Of a stretch of 10,048 nt of DNA, positions 1-10,048 are shown one piece after another. Source of the DNA: a virus; UHGV virus genome UHGV-0137329; one strand, 5' to 3'. Below the pieces are notes generated by a model. That model made no database searches. It was not told the origin of the DNA and saw nothing but the letters and a program-made list of their open reading frames with translations. The number at the start of each line of letters is the position of its first letter. Position 1 is the first letter of the stretch. Position numbers and translations under genes: made by a program.

Positions 1-31
1 ATCGCTTCAATTGGCTCTAGTTAACTCTGGT

Positions 32-1027
32 TTATGGACGCATTATGGACATTCCTGACACCGGGTTAAGAGTCACAGCATCTTGTAAGAAATCCGGTGC
101 AAAGTGTGCGTAGGTCATAGTTTGCTGAATGTTAGAATGACCCAGGATGCGCTGCAATGTGATTATGTTACCTCCATTCATTATAAAATGTGTGGCAAAT
201 GTATGCCTCAAAACATGCACTGCCTGTCCGTCAGGTAAATCGGGTTTTACTTCCCTGAGAGCGTTGCGCACTTTGTAGTAACTGGCATTAAAAAGCCTGC
301 CTGAGTTTTTGGTCTTGATCCGTTTAATCAGGTCCTGCGAAACGGGAATTGTCCTGCGCTTTCCGTTTTTAGTTTTCATAAACGTAACCATCTGGTTAAT
401 GATGTGTTCAGCTTTTAAATTAGACACTTCACTCCAGCGTCCACCAGTAGAAAGGCAGACCAGAGTCGCATTTAATTCATCACCATCGAGCATGGATAAC
501 AGCCGTGTAATCTCTTCACTGGACAAAAAAGCCATTTCTGTAACAGCTTCACGTAATCGCTTAACCTCACGGAACGGGTTGTGAGAATGGTATTCACCGG
601 CGTCAATTAACTTGGTGAACATCCCGCTCATTATTGCCAGATGCCGATTTACGCTGGCTGGTTTTAGACCATCGTTCATCATTACAACGCGATAATCAGT
701 TATCGTTTTCTTTGTTAGCTGGTCAGCTCTGGACACTCCCATTTCTGCAAATTTGGCGATTATTGTCGTCAAACGCCCCCGTTCAATATCTCCACGCTCA
801 TGTGATTTTCCGTGATATATCCACCATCTGCCTAACAACTCTGTAAGAGTTCGGCGGTCGGCTGGCTTCTCCAGCCACTCTTTGTTGTGGTAGTTAACCA
901 GTACATGACGTTCGAATGCTTGAGCTTCACCTTTAGTTTTAAATTTCCGCCTGATACGTTTTCCATCTGCACCCTGCGGTCTGACGTCCACTTCATAACG
1001 ACCATCATCGAGCTTTTTAATAGACAT
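32..1027 (-). CDS. int: Phage tyrosine integrase (site-specific recombinase), P2-family
   Basis: 331-aa ORF with stop TAA at 32-34 (minus). C-terminal catalytic region HVLRHTFATHF...LGHSNIQQTMTYAHF carries the tyrosine-recombinase H-x-x-R ... H ... Y signature. Sits immediately downstream of the repressor gene on the same strand, as in P2. Confidence 0.9.
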   Translation of the reverse strand: MSIKKLDDGRYEVDVRPQGADGKRIRRKFKTKGEAQAFERHVLVNYHNKEWLEKPADRRTLTELLGRWWIYHGKSHERGDIERGRLTTIIAKFAEMGVSRADQLTKKTITDYRVVMMNDGLKPASVNRHLAIMSGMFTKLIDAGEYHSHNPFREVKRLREAVTEMAFLSSEEITRLLSMLDGDELNATLVCLSTGGRWSEVSNLKAEHIINQMVTFMKTKNGKRRTIPVSQDLIKRIKTKNSGRLFNASYYKVRNALREVKPDLPDGQAVHVLRHTFATHFIMNGGNIITLQRILGHSNIQQTMTYAHFAPDFLQDAVTLNPVSGMSIMRP

Positions 1028-1120
1028 AAAGCCCTCCGATGACGCTGTTTACTTCTACTACTTGAAAATTAATGCAATTTTCTTTCGTACATTTACTGCA
1101 CACATATGCTGAATAAATCG

Positions 1121-1432
1121 TCAGCCAGTCTTTTGGTCTGAGTGGTGCAAGGTTGTTGAGTCTTGCCCAATGTGCGCGAGCGCCGGGGCTATTTGTCCGC
1201 CAGCGGGATCAGTTTCATCAAACATGAACCAGTCACGGTACTTGCGAAATCTTTCTGGCTTGAAAAATTTCATGCCTGCGTCAAAAGACATCTTTACTTT
1301 TCCCTGCTCATATCCAGCATAGGTGTTGTAGTTAATTCCAGTTAATTCAGCAACTTGCTTCCTTGTCATTCTTTCTGACTCCCGAATAAGTGCGAGTTTC
1401 TCTGCTTGAGATGTGATTTGTGTATTTGACAT
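1121..1432 (-). CDS. C: P2-type immunity repressor C
   Basis: 103-aa ORF, ATG at 1430-1432 (minus), stop TGA at 1121-1123. The C-terminal ...GQIAPALAH.GQ....HHSDQKTG closely matches my recollection of the P2 C repressor (99 aa). It is divergent from the cox-like gene. Confidence 0.85.
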   Translation of the reverse strand: MSNTQITSQAEKLALIRESERMTRKQVAELTGINYNTYAGYEQGKVKMSFDAGMKFFKPERFRKYRDWFMFDETDPAGGQIAPALAHIGQDSTTLHHSDQKTG

Positions 1433-1549
1433 GAATTGTCTTATCTCGTAATTTATGTTGCATGCGACACGTCAGAACAACGCAGAGCTGCTTCAAATAG
1501 CTCTGGTTGAATGGCACCAAAGTTGAGGATATCAAAATGAGTATTGGAA
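1433..1549. promoter_or_regulatory. Lysis/lysogeny switch region between C and cox (expected Pc/Pe promoters and repressor operators)
   Basis: 117-bp intergenic region between divergent repressor and cox genes. It contains a 7-bp inverted repeat CAGAGCT(9 nt)AGCTCTG at 1483-1505 and a candidate rightward -35/-10 pair, TTGAAT at 1506-1511 and TATCAA at 1529-1534, 17-bp spacer. Exact promoter and operator positions were not determined. Confidence 0.4.
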
Positions 1550-1888
1550 ATGAATAACGATGTTGGAGAAAAAGTATCTGATCTCACAAAAAGTAAAAAA
1601 TGTGACATCAAACTTGCAGCCGCACCGTCGGATTTGCTCTCGAAAGAGGGATTTGCTCTTTACATCGGTAAGACGCCTCGTGCTGTTGCTGAAATGGCGA
1701 AAGCAGGCAAGTTACCAGCCTTTTATATGACGGACCCATTAAAGCCGGGCGGTCATGCTGAGTTATGGATTAATCGCCGTGAGTGGGACAGGTACGCAGC
1801 CCAACTAGTTGATGAAGCTCCGACAGAATGGCATGACTGGAAAAATCGCATTAGTTACAGCAAATCAAGACATGGCCGTGCGGCTTAA
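1550..1888 (+). CDS. cox: Cox-like excisionase / transcriptional regulator
   Basis: The central segment FALYIGKTPRAVAEMAKAGKLPAFYMTDP aligns with the P2 Cox segment as I recall it (FAKLIGKSTGAVRRMIDKGKLPVIDMTDP). First gene of the rightward early operon. The track ORF starts at TTG 1544; the first in-frame ATG is 1550. The N-terminus is longer than P2 Cox, so the true start is uncertain. Confidence 0.75.
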   Translation: MNNDVGEKVSDLTKSKKCDIKLAAAPSDLLSKEGFALYIGKTPRAVAEMAKAGKLPAFYMTDPLKPGGHAELWINRREWDRYAAQLVDEAPTEWHDWKNRISYSKSRHGRAA

Positions 1889-1898
1889 GGTGGAAAGG

Positions 1899-2069
1899 AT
1901 GAACGAGCCTCGTTGTATTGCTCAGCTATTGCGTAATGAAAGCCCCAGGGCGATTGACTTCACCATCACCCACGGTAAGGGGCGTAAGGGAATCATTATC
2001 CGCACCAAAAAACAGAGTCCGTTAAAGAAGGCTCTGACCTTTCTGAAAAGCCGGAGGGTATGGAAATGA
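1899..2069 (+). CDS. Small hypothetical protein (position of P2 orf78)
   Basis: In-frame ATG at 1899 preceded by AGGTGG (1888-1893), directly after the cox stop (1886-1888). About 56 aa; stop TGA at 2067-2069 overlaps the B start. The track ORF begins further upstream (1809) inside cox, which is unlikely to be the real start. Confidence 0.45.
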   Translation: MNEPRCIAQLLRNESPRAIDFTITHGKGRKGIIIRTKKQSPLKKALTFLKSRRVWK

Positions 2070-2566
2070 CAGTGATGACGCTCAATCTCGTTGAAAAACA
2101 GCCAGCAGCTATGCGCCGGATAATTGGTAAGCATCTTGCCGTTCCTCGCTGGCAGGATACATGTGATTATTATAATCAGATGATGGAGCGCGAACGGTTA
2201 ACGGTTTGCTTCCATGCTCAGTTAAAACAGCGTCACGCAACGATGCGTTTTGAAGAAATGAACGACGTCGAACGTGAACGACTGGTATGTGCAATTGATG
2301 AATTGCGTGATGCATTCTCAAAACGCCGTCAGGTTGGCGCAAGTGAGTATGCATATATTAGTTTTTTAACAGTCAGTCAGCGTCGTACTTTATTTATGCA
2401 TGCCGGATTGACTGAAAAAGAATTCAACCAGCCATACTGGCGAATTAATGAAGAGTCATGTTACTGGCGTGATGCTTTATTCCGTGCATTACGTGAATTA
2501 TTCAGTCTGTTTGAGTATGCACCGACAATTCTGACGTCGGTAAAACCAGAGCAATATCTGCATTAA
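2060..2566 (+). CDS. B: Replication protein B-like (helicase-loader in P2)
   Basis: 168-aa ORF, ATG at 2060 with GGAGGG 2 nt upstream (2053-2058). Size and position (after cox/orf78, before orf80-83 and A) match P2 gene B (166 aa). Assignment rests mainly on synteny and size. Confidence 0.65.
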   Translation: MEMTVMTLNLVEKQPAAMRRIIGKHLAVPRWQDTCDYYNQMMERERLTVCFHAQLKQRHATMRFEEMNDVERERLVCAIDELRDAFSKRRQVGASEYAYISFLTVSQRRTLFMHAGLTEKEFNQPYWRINEESCYWRDALFRALRELFSLFEYAPTILTSVKPEQYLH

Positions 2567-2629
2567 GTAATTAACCAGAGTTTTTAACGCACTTAATTGT
2601 GCGGGGCTTCTTTTTGCCTGGAGAAAGTC

Positions 2630-2854
2630 ATGCATACAGTTTCTGAAAATCAGTGCGGTAAATACGCATTACTGCTGCAACAGGCCAGAACCGAAGCACA
2701 GGCCGACGCAGCGACGCGCTTTTCTTCTCATCTTGACGCCATGATTCGCCACATCACAAAGGCGGAGTTATCCCGCGTGGAGATAGTCGAGCTGCTCAGT
2801 CAGGAGTCGGAAAAATTTCACAATATCGGATTGTCTCGCGGGGAGGTGCTTTGA
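2630..2854 (+). CDS. Hypothetical early-operon protein (position of P2 orf80)
   Basis: ATG at 2630 preceded by GGAGAAAG (2620-2627), about 74 aa. The track start at 2597 is a TTG with no RBS. Its stop overlaps the next start (TGATG at 2852-2856). Confidence 0.55.
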
Positions 2855-3156
2855 TGTCCTGTTCTCGTTCAGTTGTATTACTGAATAACGCCTTAAAAAT
2901 CGCCGTTATGAAAAATGGCGATTTATCTCTTATTCAACTTGGTCTTGATAAAGAAAAACGCGAAATAACTGAGTCTGTTATCGCGATTTATCAGAACGAA
3001 TTAAATCTCCTGTCTGATGTGGTCAATTTACTTGTTAAACGCGCTGTATTTCACAAGCAAATCTCCTCCGTGGATGAACTGACGAAATTAACGACAGAAA
3101 TCGCCAGCTATTGCGCTGATGAATTTAAAAAACTGAACGACAAAAGGAACTGGTAA
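2854..3156 (+). CDS. Hypothetical early-operon protein (position of P2 orf81)
   Basis: ATG at 2854 with GGGGAGG upstream (2839-2845), about 100 aa. Stop TAA at 3154-3156 overlaps the next start. Confidence 0.6.
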   Translation: MSCSRSVVLLNNALKIAVMKNGDLSLIQLGLDKEKREITESVIAIYQNELNLLSDVVNLLVKRAVFHKQISSVDELTKLTTEIASYCADEFKKLNDKRNW

Positions 3157-3380: not shown

Positions 3381-3652
3381 GTATTCGTATTGAAATTGGC
3401 GAACGTTATGTCGTTACCAGTGACAGCTTTCAGTTTATTCTCCACGAGAAAAAGAGAGCGGAAAGCGGTAAAAACGCCGGTCAGGAATGGCTGGCGGTGG
3501 TTGGTTATTACCCGAAATTAAGCCAGCTCGTTTCCGGCCTGATGCATCACGATATTCTGACCGGAAGCGCAAAGTCTTTTGCTGATTTAAACGCGCAGGT
3601 TGAGCAACTCAGCAAGCGTTGTTCAGAGGCTTTTGGCTCATATGACCGTTAA
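3377..3652 (+). CDS. Hypothetical early-operon protein (position of P2 orf83)
   Basis: 91-aa ORF, ATG at 3377 with GGAG at 3365-3368. Its 3' end overlaps the A start by 11 nt. Confidence 0.6.
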   Translation: MSIRIEIGERYVVTSDSFQFILHEKKRAESGKNAGQEWLAVVGYYPKLSQLVSGLMHHDILTGSAKSFADLNAQVEQLSKRCSEAFGSYDR

Positions 3653-5813
3653 AGCCTCCGGGCATTTTGTCCCTCCGTCAGCATTTGCCGCAGGCACCGG
3701 TGAGACGTTTACCGGTGCTTATGCATGGAACGCGCCACGCGAGGCCGTCGGGCGCGAAAGACCCCTTACACGTGACGAGATGCGTCAGGTGCAAGGTGTT
3801 TTATCCACGATTAACCGCCTGCCTTACTTTTTGCGCTCGCTGTTTACTTCACGCTATGACTACATCCGGCGCAATAAAAGCCCGGTGCGCGGGTTTTATT
3901 TCCTCACATCCACTTTTCAGCGTCGTTTATGGCCGCGCATTGAGCGTGTGAATCAGCGCCATGAAATGAACACCGACGCGTCGTTGCTGTTTCTGGCAGA
4001 GCGTGACCACTATGCGCGCCTGCCGGGAATGAATGACAAGGAGCTGAAAAAGTTTGCCGCCCGTATCTCATCGCAGCTTTTCATGATGTATGAGGAACTC
4101 AGCGATGCCTGGGTGGATGCACATGGCGAAAAAGAATCGCTGTTTACGGATGAGGCGCAGGCTCACCTCTATGGTCATGTTGCTGGCGCTGCACGTGCTT
4201 TCAATATTTCCCCGCTTTACTGGAAAAAATACCGTAAAGGACAGATGACCACGAGGCAGGCATATTCTGCCATTGCCCGTCTGTTTAACGATGAGTGGTG
4301 GACTCATCAGCTCAAAGGCCAGCGTATGCGCTGGCATGAGGCGTTACTGATTGCTGTCGGGGAGGTGAATAAAGACCGTTCTCCTTATGCCAGTAAACAT
4401 GCCATTCGTGATGTGCGTGCACGCCGCCAGGCAAATCTGGAATTTCTTAAATCGTGTGACCTTGAAAACAGGGAAACCGGCGAGCGCATCGACCTTATCA
4501 GTAAGGTGATGGGCAGTATTTCTAATCCTGAAATTCGCCGGATGGAGCTGATGAACACCATTGCCGGTATTGAGCGTTACGCCGCCGCAGAGGGTGATGT
4601 GGGGATGTTTATCACGCTTACCGCGCCGTCAAAGTATCACCCGACACGTCAGGTCGGAAAAGGCGAAAGTAAAACCGTCCAGCTAAATCACGGCTGGAAC
4701 GATGAGGCATTTAATCCAAAGGATGCGCAGCGTTATCTCTGCCATATCTGGAGCCTGATGCGCACGGCATTCAAGGATAATGATTTACAGGTCTACGGTT
4801 TGCGTGTCGTCGAGCCACACCACGACGGAACGCCGCACTGGCATATGATGCTTTTTTGTAATCCACGCCAGCGTAACCAGATTATCGAAATCATGCGTCG
4901 CTATGCGCTCAAAGAGGATGGCGACGAAAGAGGAGCCGCGCGAAACCGTTTTCAGGCAAAACACCTTAACCAGGGCTGTGCTGCGGGGTATATCGCGAAA
5001 TACATCTCAAAAAACATCGATGGCTATGCACTGGATGGTCAGCTCGATAACGATACCGGCAGACCGCTGAAAGACACTGCTGCGGCTGTTACCGCATGGG
5101 CGTCAACGTGGCGCATCCCACAATTTAAAACGGTTGGTCTGCCGACAATGGGGGCTTACCGTGAACTACGAAAATTGCCTCGCGGCGTCAGCATTGCTGA
5201 TGAGTTTGACGAGCGAGTCGAGGCTGCACGCGCCGCCGCAGACAGTGGTGATTTTGCGTTGTATATCAGCGCGCAGGGTGGGGCAAATGTCCCGCGCGAT
5301 TGTCAGACTGTCAGGGTCGCCCGTAGTCCGTCGGATGAAGTTAACGAGTACGAGGAAGAAGTCGAGAGAGTGGTCGGCATTTACGCGCCGCATCTCGGCG
5401 CGCGTCATATTCATATCACCAGAACGACGGACTGGCGCATTGTGCCGAAAGTTCCGGTCGTTGAGCCTTTGACTTTAAAAAGCGGCATCGCCGCGCCTCG
5501 GAGTCCTGTCAATAACTGTGGAAAGTTCACCGGCGGTGACGTTCCGGTTATGCACCCTACACCGTCTGAGCATGCCGCAGCGGTGTTAAATCTGGTTGAT
5601 AGTGGTGTTATCGGATGGGATGACCCGGAAGTTGTGACGGTGCTCAGGAGTGCATTAAAACATGGTGCACCGAGACCGAATTGGCAACAAAGAAACTGCG
5701 AACCATTAAAACCGTACCAGATAGCGCCATCAGGGCGGATGACAAAGGCTGAACGTTCGCAGATTCCACGCATCCATTTCGAGCTGGCACTAATTGGTAA
5801 AACCTATCAATAG
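3642..5813 (+). CDS. A: Rolling-circle replication initiator / endonuclease gpA
   Basis: About 723 aa from ATG 3642 (the track starts at an in-frame TTG at 3600). Contains the HUH motif (PHWHMMLF) and the paired active-site tyrosines (AGYIAKYISKN) typical of the P2 A nickase. The N-terminus MTVKASGHFVPPSAFAAGTG... matches my recollection of P2 gpA. Stop TAG at 5811-5813. Confidence 0.92.
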   Translation: MTVKASGHFVPPSAFAAGTGETFTGAYAWNAPREAVGRERPLTRDEMRQVQGVLSTINRLPYFLRSLFTSRYDYIRRNKSPVRGFYFLTSTFQRRLWPRIERVNQRHEMNTDASLLFLAERDHYARLPGMNDKELKKFAARISSQLFMMYEELSDAWVDAHGEKESLFTDEAQAHLYGHVAGAARAFNISPLYWKKYRKGQMTTRQAYSAIARLFNDEWWTHQLKGQRMRWHEALLIAVGEVNKDRSPYASKHAIRDVRARRQANLEFLKSCDLENRETGERIDLISKVMGSISNPEIRRMELMNTIAGIERYAAAEGDVGMFITLTAPSKYHPTRQVGKGESKTVQLNHGWNDEAFNPKDAQRYLCHIWSLMRTAFKDNDLQVYGLRVVEPHHDGTPHWHMMLFCNPRQRNQIIEIMRRYALKEDGDERGAARNRFQAKHLNQGCAAGYIAKYISKNIDGYALDGQLDNDTGRPLKDTAAAVTAWASTWRIPQFKTVGLPTMGAYRELRKLPRGVSIADEFDERVEAARAAADSGDFALYISAQGGANVPRDCQTVRVARSPSDEVNEYEEEVERVVGIYAPHLGARHIHITRTTDWRIVPKVPVVEPLTLKSGIAAPRSPVNNCGKFTGGDVPVMHPTPSEHAAAVLNLVDSGVIGWDDPEVVTVLRSALKHGAPRPNWQQRNCEPLKPYQIAPSGRMTKAERSQIPRIHFELALIGKTYQ

Positions 5814-5843
5814 TGATTTAATGAAATTTCGGAGTCATAAATA

Positions 5844-5916
5844 TTGTGTATTTAACTAGATGATTGCAATATAAGTGCTTATTATTTATGCGATTATAGC
5901 CATAACGGAGCTGAGT
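5844..5916 (+). promoter_or_regulatory. Putative promoter/RBS region upstream of the hotspot cargo gene
   Basis: AT-rich spacer after the A stop. Candidate -10 TATAAG at 5870-5875 with a weak -35 (TGTATT at 5847-5852, 17-bp spacer). RBS ACGGAG at 5905-5910, 6 nt before ATG 5917. Promoter elements are weak matches and not verified. Confidence 0.3.
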
Positions 5917-6822
5917 ATGAGTGTTGCAAGGCATCATCATTTTTTATCCCAATGTTATTTGAAAGGGTTTACAAGTAATGGGGGGAAAAAATCAAAATTA
6001 ACTGTAATAGATTTAAAGGAGCGCAAAACCTTTGAGAGTAATACTCGCAATGTCGGGGGGGTTAGAGATTTCAACCGATTAGAATTGGATGGAGTTGACC
6101 CAAACTATCTCGAGAGTTCTCTTGCAGAGTTTGAAGGCAGTGTCGCTACTCATTTAAGAAAACTTGAGGAGGGGGGCGAGTTTTCAGGCGAAACCAAAGA
6201 TGTTATTCTGGAGTTTATTTCCTTATTGGCAATACGTACGCCTGCTCAGCGAGAACATTTATCATCTCCATTGAAACAAATAGCAAAGTTTATCATGAAA
6301 TCCTCAGTTAGTTCGGCTGAGCGTTGGGACGATTGCAAATTAGCTTATGAGAAAGAAATGGGTGAGTCTTTGCCATATGATCTCGCTTACGAAAAAATTA
6401 AAAATTTTGTGGATGGGGATAATTTCGAAATCAATGTAATCAGAGAGTTCATGATAGATATGGAAATGAAATGTGTACCTGTTATCACCAAGTTGTTGCA
6501 TCAACGCAACTGGTCACTTATGACCATATCTGATGGGCAAGGGTCATTTATAACTTCAGATAACCCAGTTTGCTTAATGTGGACTAATCCTGAATTAGCA
6601 CGAGGCCCTTATTCCCCCGGGTTTGGTGTAAAAGACACTTTAGTTTTGTTCCCAGTATCAAAAAACCTTCTTTTGGCGGGCGAGTTTGATGGTCATGAGG
6701 GTGTATTCAGTTGTAATGAGGAGCAGGCTGCGGTCTTCAATACTTCAGTCATTCGGCATACCGCAGAAAGAATATTTTCATCTAATGATAATTTCAAATT
6801 TTTAGACTCATCTAAAAAATGA
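5917..6822 (+). CDS. Hotspot cargo gene: DUF4238-like protein of unknown function, candidate anti-phage defence / superinfection-exclusion protein
   Basis: About 301 aa from ATG 5917 (the track starts at GTG 5875, which has no RBS). N-terminal motif MSVARHHHFLSQCYLKGF matches the HH-x-x-P/S-Q-x-YL-K/R-x-F signature I associate with Pfam DUF4238, a family of roughly 280-315 aa. Sampled lines are about 40% GC against mid-50s% in the flanking phage core. It occupies the A-to-cos slot where P2 carries orf91/tin/old. No Walker, HEPN, nuclease or transmembrane signature is evident by eye. Confidence 0.7.
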   Translation: MSVARHHHFLSQCYLKGFTSNGGKKSKLTVIDLKERKTFESNTRNVGGVRDFNRLELDGVDPNYLESSLAEFEGSVATHLRKLEEGGEFSGETKDVILEFISLLAIRTPAQREHLSSPLKQIAKFIMKSSVSSAERWDDCKLAYEKEMGESLPYDLAYEKIKNFVDGDNFEINVIREFMIDMEMKCVPVITKLLHQRNWSLMTISDGQGSFITSDNPVCLMWTNPELARGPYSPGFGVKDTLVLFPVSKNLLLAGEFDGHEGVFSCNEEQAAVFNTSVIRHTAERIFSSNDNFKFLDSSKK

Positions 6823-6980
6823 AGCAAGGCAAAAGCCTGGTTTGATAGCGGTTTTTCTATGATTTTACTAGGAGAATTCTACCCTTAATCAGTGTGTTTA
6901 AAATGATTAATTGTCATAACATTTTTTCATTTTTAGGTGTGCCTAGAAATGCATTCAATTGCATGCGTTTTCCTCCCCTG

Positions 6981-6994
6981 TTGCGTCTGAGCGC
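6981..6994 (+). repeat. 14-bp direct repeat, copy 1 (TTGCGTCTGAGCGC), upstream of cos
   Basis: Exact 14-mer, also present at 7209-7222. The two copies flank the cos 19-mer. Confidence 0.6.
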
Positions 6995-7060
6995 CACCAG
7001 TGCCGGCGCGCCTCCGGTGTATTCGTGCACCTGCATTAAAACCGACCCATAAAGCGGGCA

Positions 7061-7079
7061 GGCGAGGCGGGGATAGCAC
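7061..7079 (+). other. cos cohesive-end site (19-nt overhang region), P2-type
   Basis: GGCGAGGCGGGGATAGCAC differs at one position from the P2 cohesive-end sequence as I recall it (GGCGAGGCGGGGAAAGCAC). It lies between the accessory slot and Q, where cos sits in P2-like genomes. Confidence 0.55.
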
Positions 7080-7166
7080 TGCGCGCAATTGTTCATTTTG
7101 TCATATATGTAATTTGATTTGAGTAACTATCCGCATATTGTTAACGGACAAATTATTATAACTGGA

Positions 7167-7191
7167 GTTGGCCACATTTTATGTGGCCAAC
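7167..7191. repeat. Perfect palindrome: 11-bp arms, 3-nt spacer (GTTGGCCACAT ttt ATGTGGCCAAC)
   Basis: Verified base by base: the arms are exact reverse complements. It sits in an AT-rich segment between cos and Q. No U-tract follows on either strand, so it is more likely a protein-binding site or structural element than a terminator. Confidence 0.6.
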
Positions 7192-7208
7192 GTAACGGCG
7201 TGGTAGTG

Positions 7209-7222
7209 ACAGTTTTTTTGCG
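7209..7222 (+). repeat. 14-bp direct repeat, copy 2 (TTGCGTCTGAGCGC), downstream of cos
   Basis: Exact copy of 6981-6994, preceded by a T7 run. Confidence 0.6.
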
Positions 7223-7326
7223 TCTGAGCGCGTCGTGATGGCATTTAGTCGGCCTGCCGGGGCGTTGGTGTGTCTGCGGGGTGTTTTGTGCGGTGGTGAG
7301 CGTGTGAGGCCGTGATGACGGGGTGT

Positions 7327-7348
7327 AAAAAAGCCGCCCGCAGGCGGC
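7327..7348 (-). terminator. Rho-independent terminator of the P-Q packaging operon
   Basis: On the minus strand: GC-only 6-bp stem GCCGCC / GGCGGC (7333-7348) with a 4-nt loop, followed by a T6 run (complement of A6 at 7327-7332). It begins 5 nt after the Q stop codon (7354-7356). Confidence 0.7.
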
Positions 7349-7353
7349 GATGT

Positions 7354-8388
7354 TCAGCCGTTGTCAGTGTCCAGTGAGTAGTTTTTAAAGCGGATGACCT
7401 CCTGACCGAGCCAGCCGTTTATCTCGCGGATCCTGTCCTGTAGCGGGATAAGCTCATTGCGGACAAAGACCTTTGCCACTTTCTCAATATCACCCAGCGA
7501 CCCGACGTTCTCCGGCTTGCCGCCCATCAACTGAAAGGGGATGCGGTGCGCATCCAGCAGGTCAGCGGCGCTGGCTTTTTTGATATTAAAAAAATCGTCC
7601 TTCGTCGCCACTTCACTGAGCGGGATAATTTTAATGCCGTCGGCTTTCCCCTGCGGGGCATAGAGAAACAGGTTTTTAAAGTTGTTGCGGCCTTTCGACT
7701 TCACCATGTTTTCGCGAAGCATTTCGATATCGTTGCGATCCTGCACGGCATCGGTGACGTACATGATGTATCCGGCATGTGCGCCGTTTTCGTAATACTT
7801 GCGGCGGAACAGCGTGGCCGACTCATTCAGCCAGGCAGAGTTAAGGGCGCTGAGATATTCCGGCAGGCCGTACAGCTCCTGATTAATATCGGGCTCCAGC
7901 AGGTGAAACACGGAGCCGGGCGTGAAGGCTGTCGGCTCGTTGAAGGACGGCACCCACCAGTAAACATCCTCCTCCACGCCACGGCGGGTATATTTTGCCG
8001 GTGAGGTTTCCAGTCTGATGACCTTACCGGTGGTGCTGTAACGCTTTTCCAGAAACGCATTACCGAACACCAGAAAATCCAGCACAAAGCGGCTGAAATC
8101 CTGCTGGGAAAGCCACGGATGCGGGATAAATGTCGAGGCCAGAATATTGCGTTTGACGTAAATCGGTGAGCTGTGATGCACGGCAGCACGCAGGCTTTTT
8201 GCCAGACCGGTAAAGCTGACCGGTGGCTCATACCATCTGCCGTTACTGATGCACTCGACGTAATCCAGAATGTCACGGCGGTCGAGTACCGGCACCGGCT
8301 CACCAAAGGTGAATGCCTCCATTTTCGGGGCGCTGGCGGTCATTTTTTTTGCCGCAGGTTGCGGTGTTTTCCCTTTTTTCTTGCTCAT
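7354..8388 (-). CDS. Q: Capsid portal protein gpQ
   Basis: 344-aa ORF, the same length as P2 gpQ. The lysine-rich N-terminus MSKKKGKTPQPAAKK is consistent with the P2 portal. Its start overlaps the P stop (TGATG arrangement on the minus strand at 8386-8390). Transcribed toward cos, as in P2. Confidence 0.9.
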   Translation of the reverse strand: MSKKKGKTPQPAAKKMTASAPKMEAFTFGEPVPVLDRRDILDYVECISNGRWYEPPVSFTGLAKSLRAAVHHSSPIYVKRNILASTFIPHPWLSQQDFSRFVLDFLVFGNAFLEKRYSTTGKVIRLETSPAKYTRRGVEEDVYWWVPSFNEPTAFTPGSVFHLLEPDINQELYGLPEYLSALNSAWLNESATLFRRKYYENGAHAGYIMYVTDAVQDRNDIEMLRENMVKSKGRNNFKNLFLYAPQGKADGIKIIPLSEVATKDDFFNIKKASAADLLDAHRIPFQLMGGKPENVGSLGDIEKVAKVFVRNELIPLQDRIREINGWLGQEVIRFKNYSLDTDNG

Positions 8389-10048
8389 CAGTAAAACTCC
8401 AGAATGGTGGATGTCAGCGGGGTGCTGATACCGGCGGTGAGTGGCTCATTTAACAGGGCGTGCATGGTCGCCCAGGCGAGGTCGGCGTGGCTGGCTTCCT
8501 CGCTGCGGCTGGCCTCATAGGTGGCACTGCGTCCGCTGCTGGTCATGGTCTTGCGGATAGCCATAAACGAGCTGGTGATGTCGGTGGCGCTGACGTCATA
8601 TTCCAGACAGCCACGGCGGATAACGTCTTTTGCCTTGAGCACCATTGCGGTTTTCATTTCCGGCGTGTAGCGGATATCGCGCGCGGCGGGATAGAACGAG
8701 CGCACGAGCTGGAACACGCCGACACCGAGGCCGGTGGCATCAATACCGATGTATTCGACGTTATATTTTTCGGTGAGTTTGCGGATGGATTCAGCCTGAG
8801 TGGCAAAGTCCATGCCTTTCCACTGGTGACGCTCAAGTATTCTGAATTTGCCACCGGCCACCACCGGCGGTGCCAGCACCACGCATCCGGCGCTGTCGCC
8901 ACGGTGTGACGGGTCGTAACCAATCCATACCGGGCGGGAACCGAACGGATTGGCGGCAAAGGGTGCATAGTCTTCCCATTCTTCCAGCGTGTCGACCATG
9001 CAGCGTTGCAACTCCTCGAACGGGAACACCGACGCCTTGTCGTCAACAAATTCACACATGAACAGGTTTTTAAAATCGTCGGCGCTGTTTTCGCGTTTGA
9101 GCTGTTCAATGTCGAACAGCGTGCAGCCACCTTTCAGGGCGTCCTCAATGGTGACAATCTGCCGCCACTGGCCGTCTGCACAGAGAAGCCCACCGGCAAG
9201 GGCGTTATGACTGACGTCGATTTCCACGCGTTCGGCGGCGCTGGCGCGTCCCCGGTTGAACAGTTCACCCGACCAGAACGGGTAGGCGTCGTGCGCCAGC
9301 GTGGACGGGGTGGAGAAATAGGTCGAGCGCAGGTGACTCTGTGAGGCCATACCTGATGCCACCTTACGCAGCACCTGAAAATTCGGGATCCAGAAAATCT
9401 CGTCGACGTACAGGTCGCCGTTATGGCTCTGCGCAGTGTTGGAGTTTGTGCCGAGAAAAATCAGTTTTGCGCCGTTATTGCCCAGGACAATCGGGTCACC
9501 GGTCAGGTCAACGTCAACCAGACGGGCAAAGGCGATGATGTATTCACGGAACACATACGCCTGCGTTTTACTGGCCGACAGAAAAATCTGGTTATGGCCG
9601 GTTTTCAGGGCGCGCAGCAGCGCCTCGCGGGAAAAATAAAACGTTGCGCCAATCTGGCGGGATTTCAGGATATCGCGGATGCGGTGCTCAAGCCCGGCGC
9701 GATACCAGTACAACTGATATTCGAAAGACTGCTCAAAGAAAATCTGCTCCAGCTTTTCGATGGCCTCGTCACTGAAAAAATTCTTTTTCGGTTTGCGCCG
9801 CCCGCCTTTGTTGCGGTTAGCGACGTTCGGATTAAGGTCTGCCTCGTTGCCGGTCTGGCTGTAGCGGTTTACCCGTGCCAGTCGTTCAATCTGGCGTCCC
9901 AGCAGGTCAATTTCCTTGAAATCACCGCCGGTTTTCTGCGGTTTGATGATGAGCTGGGTCAGTCGCGCTTCCAGACTCATTTCGACACGGCTGATGGGGG
10001 CAACGCTGTCCCAGCCGTCGCGCTGTTTCCAGCTCTGCACCGTCGGGC
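8388..10048 (-). CDS. P: Terminase large (ATPase) subunit gpP, 5'-partial: N-terminus lies beyond the window end
   Basis: Open reading frame runs from the window edge to stop TGA at 8388-8390 (at least 550 aa in window; P2 gpP is about 590 aa). It is immediately upstream of Q in the same orientation. The M at 10040 in the track is a GTG and probably an internal valine. Confidence 0.88.
   Translation of the reverse strand, partial: PTVQSWKQRDGWDSVAPISRVEMSLEARLTQLIIKPQKTGGDFKEIDLLGRQIERLARVNRYSQTGNEADLNPNVANRNKGGRRKPKKNFFSDEAIEKLEQIFFEQSFEYQLYWYRAGLEHRIRDILKSRQIGATFYFSREALLRALKTGHNQIFLSASKTQAYVFREYIIAFARLVDVDLTGDPIVLGNNGAKLIFLGTNSNTAQSHNGDLYVDEIFWIPNFQVLRKVASGMASQSHLRSTYFSTPSTLAHDAYPFWSGELFNRGRASAAERVEIDVSHNALAGGLLCADGQWRQIVTIEDALKGGCTLFDIEQLKRENSADDFKNLFMCEFVDDKASVFPFEELQRCMVDTLEEWEDYAPFAANPFGSRPVWIGYDPSHRGDSAGCVVLAPPVVAGGKFRILERHQWKGMDFATQAESIRKLTEKYNVEYIGIDATGLGVGVFQLVRSFYPAARDIRYTPEMKTAMVLKAKDVIRRGCLEYDVSATDITSSFMAIRKTMTSSGRSATYEASRSEEASHADLAWATMHALLNEPLTAGISTPLTSTILEFY

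Follow-up and report, generated by a model that had tools for sequence, protein, structure and literature searches.

What is the AT-rich DNA that lies between replication gene A and cos in a P2-like phage, and in what unit is it exchanged? The question is raised by UHGV virus genome UHGV-0137329, a stretch of 10,048 nucleotides (nt) that was analysed at its full length and is referred to here as the window, in which positions 5814 to 7060 had been described in an initial annotation as a horizontally acquired moron cassette. The window is a P2-like (Peduovirus) prophage, as identified from its open reading frame (ORF) layout and from Pfam hits to Phage_GPA, Phage_portal and an integrase, and its gene order, int-C-cox-B-A-cargo-cos-Q-P, represents the early region and the packaging end of a temperate phage. 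With a probability of about 0.9, we consider the interval to be the swappable cargo slot of this phage known as the TO region, holding here a DUF4238 defence gene. The term TO region designates the defence hotspot between gpA and gpQ, which is horizontally exchanged (Rousset et al. 2022, PMC9122126; PMC3091744; PMC13586616); an earlier description of it, by Nilsson and Haggard-Ljungquist, is cited in PMC3091744. In this reading, related phages keep A, Q and P nearly identical and swap the DNA between them by recombination; in the window, one crossover fell within the 3' part of A and its partner at cos. The slot carries one gene together with its own upstream region, namely the stand-alone DUF4238 gene of the single-gene system Rst_DUF4238, and the protein, expressed from the prophage, would most likely shield the lysogen, and with it the prophage, from superinfection by phages such as T7.

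Base composition sets the interval apart from its neighbours. The guanine-plus-cytosine (GC) content of 5814-7060 is 0.391 (0.373 for 5814-6959), compared to 0.529, 0.538 and 0.569 in the flanking genes A, Q and P, respectively, which corresponds to z = -10.9 against A, Q and P combined. No other stretch of this length in the window has so low a GC content, the minimum elsewhere being 0.425. Codon usage in the ORF at 5917-6822 deviates similarly: GC at third codon positions is 0.351, compared to 0.542 in A, 0.672 in Q and 0.699 in P, and synonymous codon usage differs from that of A, Q and P combined with chi2 = 228 (41 degrees of freedom, p = 8e-28), a value larger than in all control comparisons (int, 132; B, 98; A versus Q and P, 105). 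Maximum-likelihood GC change points were located at 5790 and 6971. The initial annotation had described an AT-rich island against GC-rich A, Q and P, beginning right after the A stop codon and reaching to just before cos. The non-uniform GC and codon usage agree with such an island, and its left edge had been placed correctly to within about 20 nt; its right edge had been drawn about 100 nt too far, given that the last 100 nt before cos (6960-7060) have a GC content of 0.604.

Comparison with relatives indicates what occupies this position in other phages. We compared the window by blastn with P2 and eight Escherichia coli P2-like prophages that carry other cargo, and added a ninth prophage, L012 of E. 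coli CFSAN061761. In P2 and the eight prophages, homology on the A side (95-97% identity) is lost at 5775-5799, or at 5591 in one of them, and is back at 7017-7032, from where it continues to 7086; from 7213 rightward, identity amounts to 97.6-98.1%. The corresponding homology limits are 5731 and 7028 for L012. No homology was found across the island in P2 or any of the nine prophages, and thus no collinearity with the phage core, despite a backbone identity of 96-98% among the compared relatives. Gene-by-gene inspection of other relatives, among them P2, showed unrelated cargo in the same slot in 10 of 10. This cargo comprises old/tin; ImmA with two hypothetical proteins; DUF3850 with Dcm and an ATPase; AAA ATPases; an exonuclease with HIRAN; a DEAD helicase; an ABC-three-component system; and DUF7380 / PDC-S39. 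Among these contents, recognised anti-phage systems are DUF4238-Pers in the window, PDC-S39 in L012 and old/tin in P2. Of 5,426 complete E. coli genomes, 14 contain the island and 1,642 contain the neighbouring part of A. These results bear out the earlier proposal of cargo seated between conserved core genes. In a larger sample of 86 loci, consisting of the window, ten E. coli prophages and 75 IMG/VR contigs, the distance between the replication origin (ori) and cos ranges from 1.3 to 4.7 kb with more than 40 distinct lengths, and cargo GC content is between 0.32 and 0.45 in 86 of 86 loci. AT-rich cargo in every locus fits repeated import from outside the phage core gene pool.

The same data bear on the possibility that the interval is an intrinsic, vertically inherited regulatory or packaging region that requires a low GC content. 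The interval abuts cos, and conserved AT-rich segments do exist in the window: the conserved core ORF at 2851-3156 has a GC content of 0.373, as low as that of the cargo, the early region (1-3100) has a mean of 0.442, and bins of the C/cox switch region within 1201-1700 range from 0.38 to 0.41. Composition alone would therefore not prove acquisition, whereas the comparative evidence does. An intrinsic region is contradicted by the absence of homology in P2 and the nine prophages with other cargo, by the finding that, of 1,642 E. coli genomes with the adjacent part of A, only 14 contain the interval, and by the fact that a single ORF strongly matching a defence-protein family makes up 73% of it. 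We regard this alternative as refuted. Relatives share the core ORF at 2851-3156 with about 96% identity, and its annotation is DUF5405 or "replication initiation protein".

The cargo consists of one gene, which begins with an ATG codon at 5917 and encodes 301 amino acids (aa); no other ORF between A and cos has family support. The protein matches Pfam PF14022 (DUF4238) over residues 7-291 with an E value of 4e-39 and 135 bits (cut-off 27), and residues 1-301 align with positions 1-301 of the 309 positions of the PADLOC profile DUF4238-Pers (PDLC03000; 6.3e-214). It shares 92% identity with the protein of E. coli TA007 carried by pFR101. This protein was cloned from a P2 hotspot and confers strong T7 resistance (PMC9122126). 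The pFR101 clone is active with about 200 nt of native upstream DNA, and window positions 5836-5866 are common to its upstream region. A 309-aa form of the protein, WP_001515549, is identical to the window allele over all 301 aa of the latter and is among the P2-hotspot cargo in the tables of PMC9122126. The difference in length arises at a run of A at 6814-6819, which comprises six nucleotides in the window and seven in pro483, in the E. coli 258E prophage and in contigs L020 and L021. Because this run is 1 nt shorter, the stop codon comes earlier and the last 8 of the 309 residues are lost.

A single-gene architecture without an obligatory partner is supported by the lone ORF in the window, by lone homologues elsewhere and by the family itself, which counts 8,255 cluster representatives, of which the best-scoring 150 almost all consist of one domain and have a length of about 300-330 aa. 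Homologues of about 50% identity stand alone in other mobile elements, beside defence genes. An AlphaFold2 model computed from 50 homologues reached a predicted local distance difference test score (pLDDT) of 89.7, and no fold relative of this model was found in the PDB. The only viral structural match was BFVD V9IQH5 (Foldseek E = 4e-11, 12% identity), which is an uncharacterised protein from Stenotrophomonas phage Smp131. If Smp131 is P2-like, as we presume, the modelled DUF4238 fold may recur as cargo in distant members of the group. Invariant polar residues are clustered in the N-terminal 75 residues (H7, H8, Q12, D32, R50, D51, R54 and E73); further invariant positions are R112, E183, R197, T213 and N275, with D215 close to invariance. 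An HEPN-like Rx6H motif (R107...H114) was considered and dropped because R107 and H114 are each less than 90% conserved. No description of a DUF4238 mechanism was found in the literature searched. Our best guess is that the protein acts as a stand-alone, single-chain sensor and effector, with an active or binding site that may be built from the invariant N-terminal His-His, Asp, Arg and Glu residues. DUF4238 represents a validated defence protein from a large family, with a confidently predicted fold and without a structural relative in the PDB.

In addition to the AT-rich core ORF, several points weigh against the reading of the interval as a swappable slot with a defence gene. A consensus scan detected no sigma-70 promoter on the + strand in 5814-5916, where manual inspection likewise gave no convincing -35/-10 pair, and no terminator on the + strand in 6823-7060; the scans consequently do not establish autonomous expression of the cargo gene. 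The 301-aa allele lacks the last 8 residues, and its activity is suggested by homology only. The shortened A run could reflect real decay or a homopolymer sequencing error. A donor of the cassette was not identifiable, because the identity of homologues falls from 84-100% straight to about 54%. With respect to the term moron, the deviant composition is confirmed, whereas a promoter and a terminator belonging to the cassette went undetected in the consensus scan, and the clone with about 200 nt of upstream DNA is active.

Some of these points would also be expected if DUF4238 were cargo and not a defence gene here, but either a pseudogene in decay or a gene that serves some other function. The homopolymer frameshift at the C terminus, the deletion of a second cassette right of cos in the same genome, a hint of cargo decay that is described below, and the lack of a published mechanism all favour this alternative. 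We nevertheless consider it unlikely, as the Pfam domain is intact, the ORF shows no other difference from the common 309-aa allele, and a protein of 92% identity gives T7 resistance from its native upstream region (PMC9122126). A defence gene in the TO-region slot, which is probably expressed in the lysogen and active in its slightly truncated form, remains the reading that we prefer.

Identity to the closest relatives indicates that the exchanged unit is larger than the AT-rich island. The closest named phage is Peduovirus pro483, with 99.3% identity over 5500-7400. The backbones of the window and of pro483 or the E. coli 258E prophage differ by about 2.1% on both sides of 5454-7086; within this tract there are no substitutions against either of them and one 1-nt indel, where about 34 mismatches would be expected. 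The last mismatch on the left is at 5453 and the next difference on the right at 7087. Because this tract is identical amid diverged backbones, we define the exchanged module as 5454-7086, and the unit of exchange is thus this segment and not 5814-7060, starting near the ori nick and ending 7 nt past the cos 19-mer. Accompanying changes are seen in A. Up to about 5500, the window is 92-100% identical to nine relatives that carry other cargo (in most cases 95% or more); identity then decreases to 80% in 5500-5599, to about 70% in 5600-5699 and to 64% in 5700-5802. The A-tail allele 5526-5835 is present at an identity of at least 99% in exactly 14 of the 5,426 E. coli genomes, which equals the count for the island. 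By this comparison, the mobile module takes in the last approximately 290 nt of A. The A protein of the window has 723 aa, counted from the ATG of the pro483 and E. coli 258E annotations, and a C-terminal alignment indicated that the last 38-45 codons or so found in A of P2 and eight other relatives are missing here.

The extent of this tract also speaks to a possible insertion of the cassette by a transposable element or a site-specific system, for example an insertion sequence, a miniature inverted-repeat transposable element or an integron-like system. Such an origin would account for a compact single-gene unit with sharp edges, and an imperfect 23-nt direct repeat, CATTAAAACCG..., is present on both sides of the cargo. 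Neither a transposase nor an integrase gene is present in the interval, and terminal inverted repeats and a target-site duplication are likewise absent, the sole inverted repeat found being internal to the cargo ORF. The shared tract extends past the cargo into homologous A and to cos, which is the signature of homologous or end-driven exchange, and transposable elements are almost absent from P2-like hotspots (PMC13586616). Taken together, we judge insertion by such an element or system to be very improbable. The initial annotation had suggested looking for conserved flanking recombination motifs, and none of a site-specific kind were found: flanking repeats belong to short two-copy families only, none of them at the homology breakpoints, and Rfam has no match in 5400-7400. 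The 23-nt repeat mentioned above is located at 5704-5726, in the tail of A, and at 7034-7056, in the conserved box left of cos, with 83% identity between the copies. A shorter version, TTAAAACCGC, occurs at both places in P2, and the repeat may be due to chance.

If the TO-region slot is replaced by recombination, it can be asked what sets the limits of the exchanged segment. The left crossover interval of the module, 5454-5525 (72 nt), contains the equivalent of the P2 ori nick at 5500, and the sequence around ori (about 5454-5525, -47 to +26) is invariant in all relatives. We examined pairs of loci that share the same cargo (divergence of at most 0.3% from ori+450 to cos-50) on diverged backbones, obtaining 25 pairs in 17 cargo classes. 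An earlier set of pairs was biased because the region used for selection included the A tail; with selection on cargo only, the left boundary was at ori in about half of the classes. On the right, the first difference lies between cos+13 and cos+88 in 25 of 25 pairs, mostly directly after the conserved 26 nt, and the divergence of Q in same-cargo pairs equals that in pairs with unrelated cargo. On the left, the whole A tail is identical in 9-10 of 17 classes, with mismatches restarting at -8 to -56 from the nick (at -131 to -182 in three pairs); the boundary is near the end of A in 7-8 of 17 classes, and linkage further upstream is kept in 0 of 17. In the pairs with a linked tail, mismatch density in the 50 nt upstream of the nick is 0.020, against a background of 0.019. 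Clustering of the left boundaries gave p of about 1e-5 in a hand calculation under a crude constant-hazard null, a value that comes from a small sample of pairs that are not fully independent. Nucleotide diversity among relatives is 0.00-0.07 upstream of ori and rises from about ori+50 to the end of A.

These observations raise the possibility that the hotspot is exchanged as an ori-to-cos segment, between the nick made by gpA at 5500 and the terminase cut at cos (7061-7079). DNA ends or collapsed forks at these two positions would initiate recombination with another P2-like genome resident in the same cell, and the whole segment, together with its cargo, would be replaced as one piece. The position of the nick within the left crossover interval of the module, right boundaries within 88 nt of cos in all 17 classes, the 9-10 classes with a left boundary by the nick and a mismatch density upstream of it at the level of the background, and the climb in diversity from about ori+50 are all in line with this proposal, and cos ends have already been proposed as one recombination substrate (PMC9122126). 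Left boundaries near the end of A, away from ori, in 7-8 of the 17 classes argue against it. Furthermore, the invariant sequence from -47 to +26 could favour ordinary homologous crossovers without a nick, erosion of linkage by repeated homologous recombination could contribute, there is no Chi site in the window, and the support comes from comparison of sequences, not from experiments. Considering also the limits of the clustering statistic, we hold exchange from ori to cos to be a tentative proposal, somewhat less probable than its converse, which refines the TO-region reading and does not replace it. If it is correct, the replication nick would supply the "second crossover" that the cos-end model of Rousset et al. 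lacks, the gathering of defence genes in exactly the slot between ori and cos would be explained, and the 3' approximately 300 nt of A would belong to the mobile module and not to the stable core. Boundaries at the nucleotide level are discussed in neither of the two hotspot papers (PMC9122126, PMC13586616). The limits of the module, with cos always on the right and often the ori nick on the left, would provide a concrete and testable mechanism for hotspot turnover.

A second slot is located to the right of cos. Compared to the blastn relatives, including pro483 and 258E, the window has additional sequence at 7087-7212, in place of which these relatives have 21 nt, so that about 110 nt (7087-7196) are truly extra. 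Prophage L012 (positions 4835-6000) and IMG/VR contig L020 contain 1,165-1,166 nt between the positions corresponding to 7145 and 7146, and on this basis the window is a deletion derivative; L020 is elsewhere 99.8-99.97% identical to the window. The right remnant of the deleted cassette consists of the last 16 nt of a gene for a 333-aa protein and a hairpin at 7167-7191. Searches of PADLOC, PHROGs and NCBIfam gave no hit for the 333-aa protein, and Pfam gave only a sub-threshold one (DUF3894, 18.6 bits, cut-off 25). No microhomology was visible at the junction, which has no exact match in 185,579 species-representative genomes or in the phage collection and no full-length match in complete E. 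coli genomes.

Several side observations concern the surroundings of cos. The GC-rich block at 6959-7031 is absent from P2 and the closest relatives and is shared, at 79-89%, with another P2-like lineage only (L018, L019), which suggests mosaicism of the extended cos region. The block resembles sequence left of cos in P4 clones; an origin from a P4 satellite was dropped because the matching E. coli loci are other P2-like prophages. An exact 14-nt direct repeat, TTGCGTCTGAGCGC, is found at 6981-6994 and 7218-7231, approximately -80 and +157 relative to cos, and may be part of an extended packaging signal; its P2 counterpart, CAGCGTCTCAGCGC, is present on the right side only. Relatives also have a hypervariable patch at cos+73 to cos+110, between cos and the end of Q (about 7240-7260 in the window, allowing for the scar). 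Pairwise mismatch in this patch is 0.17-0.21 in same-cargo and different-cargo pairs alike, compared to about 0.03 in Q.

Coordinates of the features in the window are given together with the underlying evidence (strand is left empty where it does not apply).
Feature	Position	Strand	Evidence or remarks
Integrase	32-1027	-	Pfam/ORF layout
Repressor C	1121-1432	-	Pfam/ORF layout
cox / B region	after C	+	Pfam/ORF layout
Replication gene A (replication endonuclease)	3642-5813	+	Pfam Phage_GPA, 3e-124
Exchanged module, 1,633 nt	5454-7086		Identity vs pro483 and E. coli 258E prophage
Equivalent of P2 ori nick	5500	+	NC_001895 position 29892, RefSeq rep_origin; alignment, window = L002 + 3107
Diverged 3' allele of A, co-inherited with cargo, GC ~0.51	5526-5813	+	Identity scan
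Upstream region of cargo gene, AT-rich, GC 0.29	5814-5916	+	GGAG ribosome-binding site, 5907-5910
DUF4238 defence gene	5917-6822	+	Pfam PF14022, PADLOC
3' spacer of cassette, AT-rich, GC 0.32	6823-6958		GC; terminator and Rfam scans
Left flank of cos, GC-rich, 0.60	6959-7060		Conserved in all relatives from 7017-7032 on
cos 19-mer, GGCGAGGCGGGGATAGCAC	7061-7079		1 mismatch vs P2 cosL/cosR; regex hits in 86 loci
Scar of deleted second cassette	7087-7196 (junction 7145/7146)		Left remnant 7087-7145 (59 nt), right remnant 7146-7196
Portal gene Q, conserved right border of hotspot	7354-8388	-	Pfam Phage_portal; 97.6-98.1% identity to all relatives
Terminase P	8388-10040	-	Pfam/ORF layout

The locus can be compared with four known systems. 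Like lambdoid morons of the Hendrix type, the cassette is an extra gene of deviant composition between conserved genes that probably benefits the lysogen. It differs from them in that a cassette replaces another cassette in a fixed slot here, as opposed to a unit added between two genes; their defining promoter and terminator went undetected in the consensus scan of the window. The old and tin genes of P2, which are likewise AT-rich, occupy the same slot; they are dispensable and keep other phages out of the lysogen. Their proteins are unrelated to DUF4238, and the P2 genes run in the opposite direction and have a mapped promoter beside cos, whereas the gene of the window is on the strand of A and has no detected consensus promoter. 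By comparison with Rst_DUF4238 of DefenseFinder, or DUF4238-Pers of PADLOC, the window shows a full-length match to the PADLOC model and 92% identity to the validated TA007 protein, and it shares the single-gene organisation, and part of the upstream sequence with the TA007 clone. Differences are the length of the allele (301 versus 309 aa) and the upstream context, in which sharing starts at about 5836.

The closest correspondence is to the TO region itself, from which the window differs in nothing essential: the slot is between A and Q and beside cos, its cargo differs among phages of about 98% identity, and its content is anti-phage. Both the locus and its gene were thus already known, and the interval is a textbook instance of a catalogued and tested cassette, and this identification is of use for annotation and adds little that is new. 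Three points go beyond the available literature: the precise limits of the module, the fact that these coincide with ori and cos, and the absence of a structural relative of DUF4238. To the picture of the TO region, the window adds an exchanged tract that includes approximately 290 nt of A, starts in the region of the ori nick and ends 7 nt past cos, and a separate sub-slot to the right of cos, of which a deletion scar is left.

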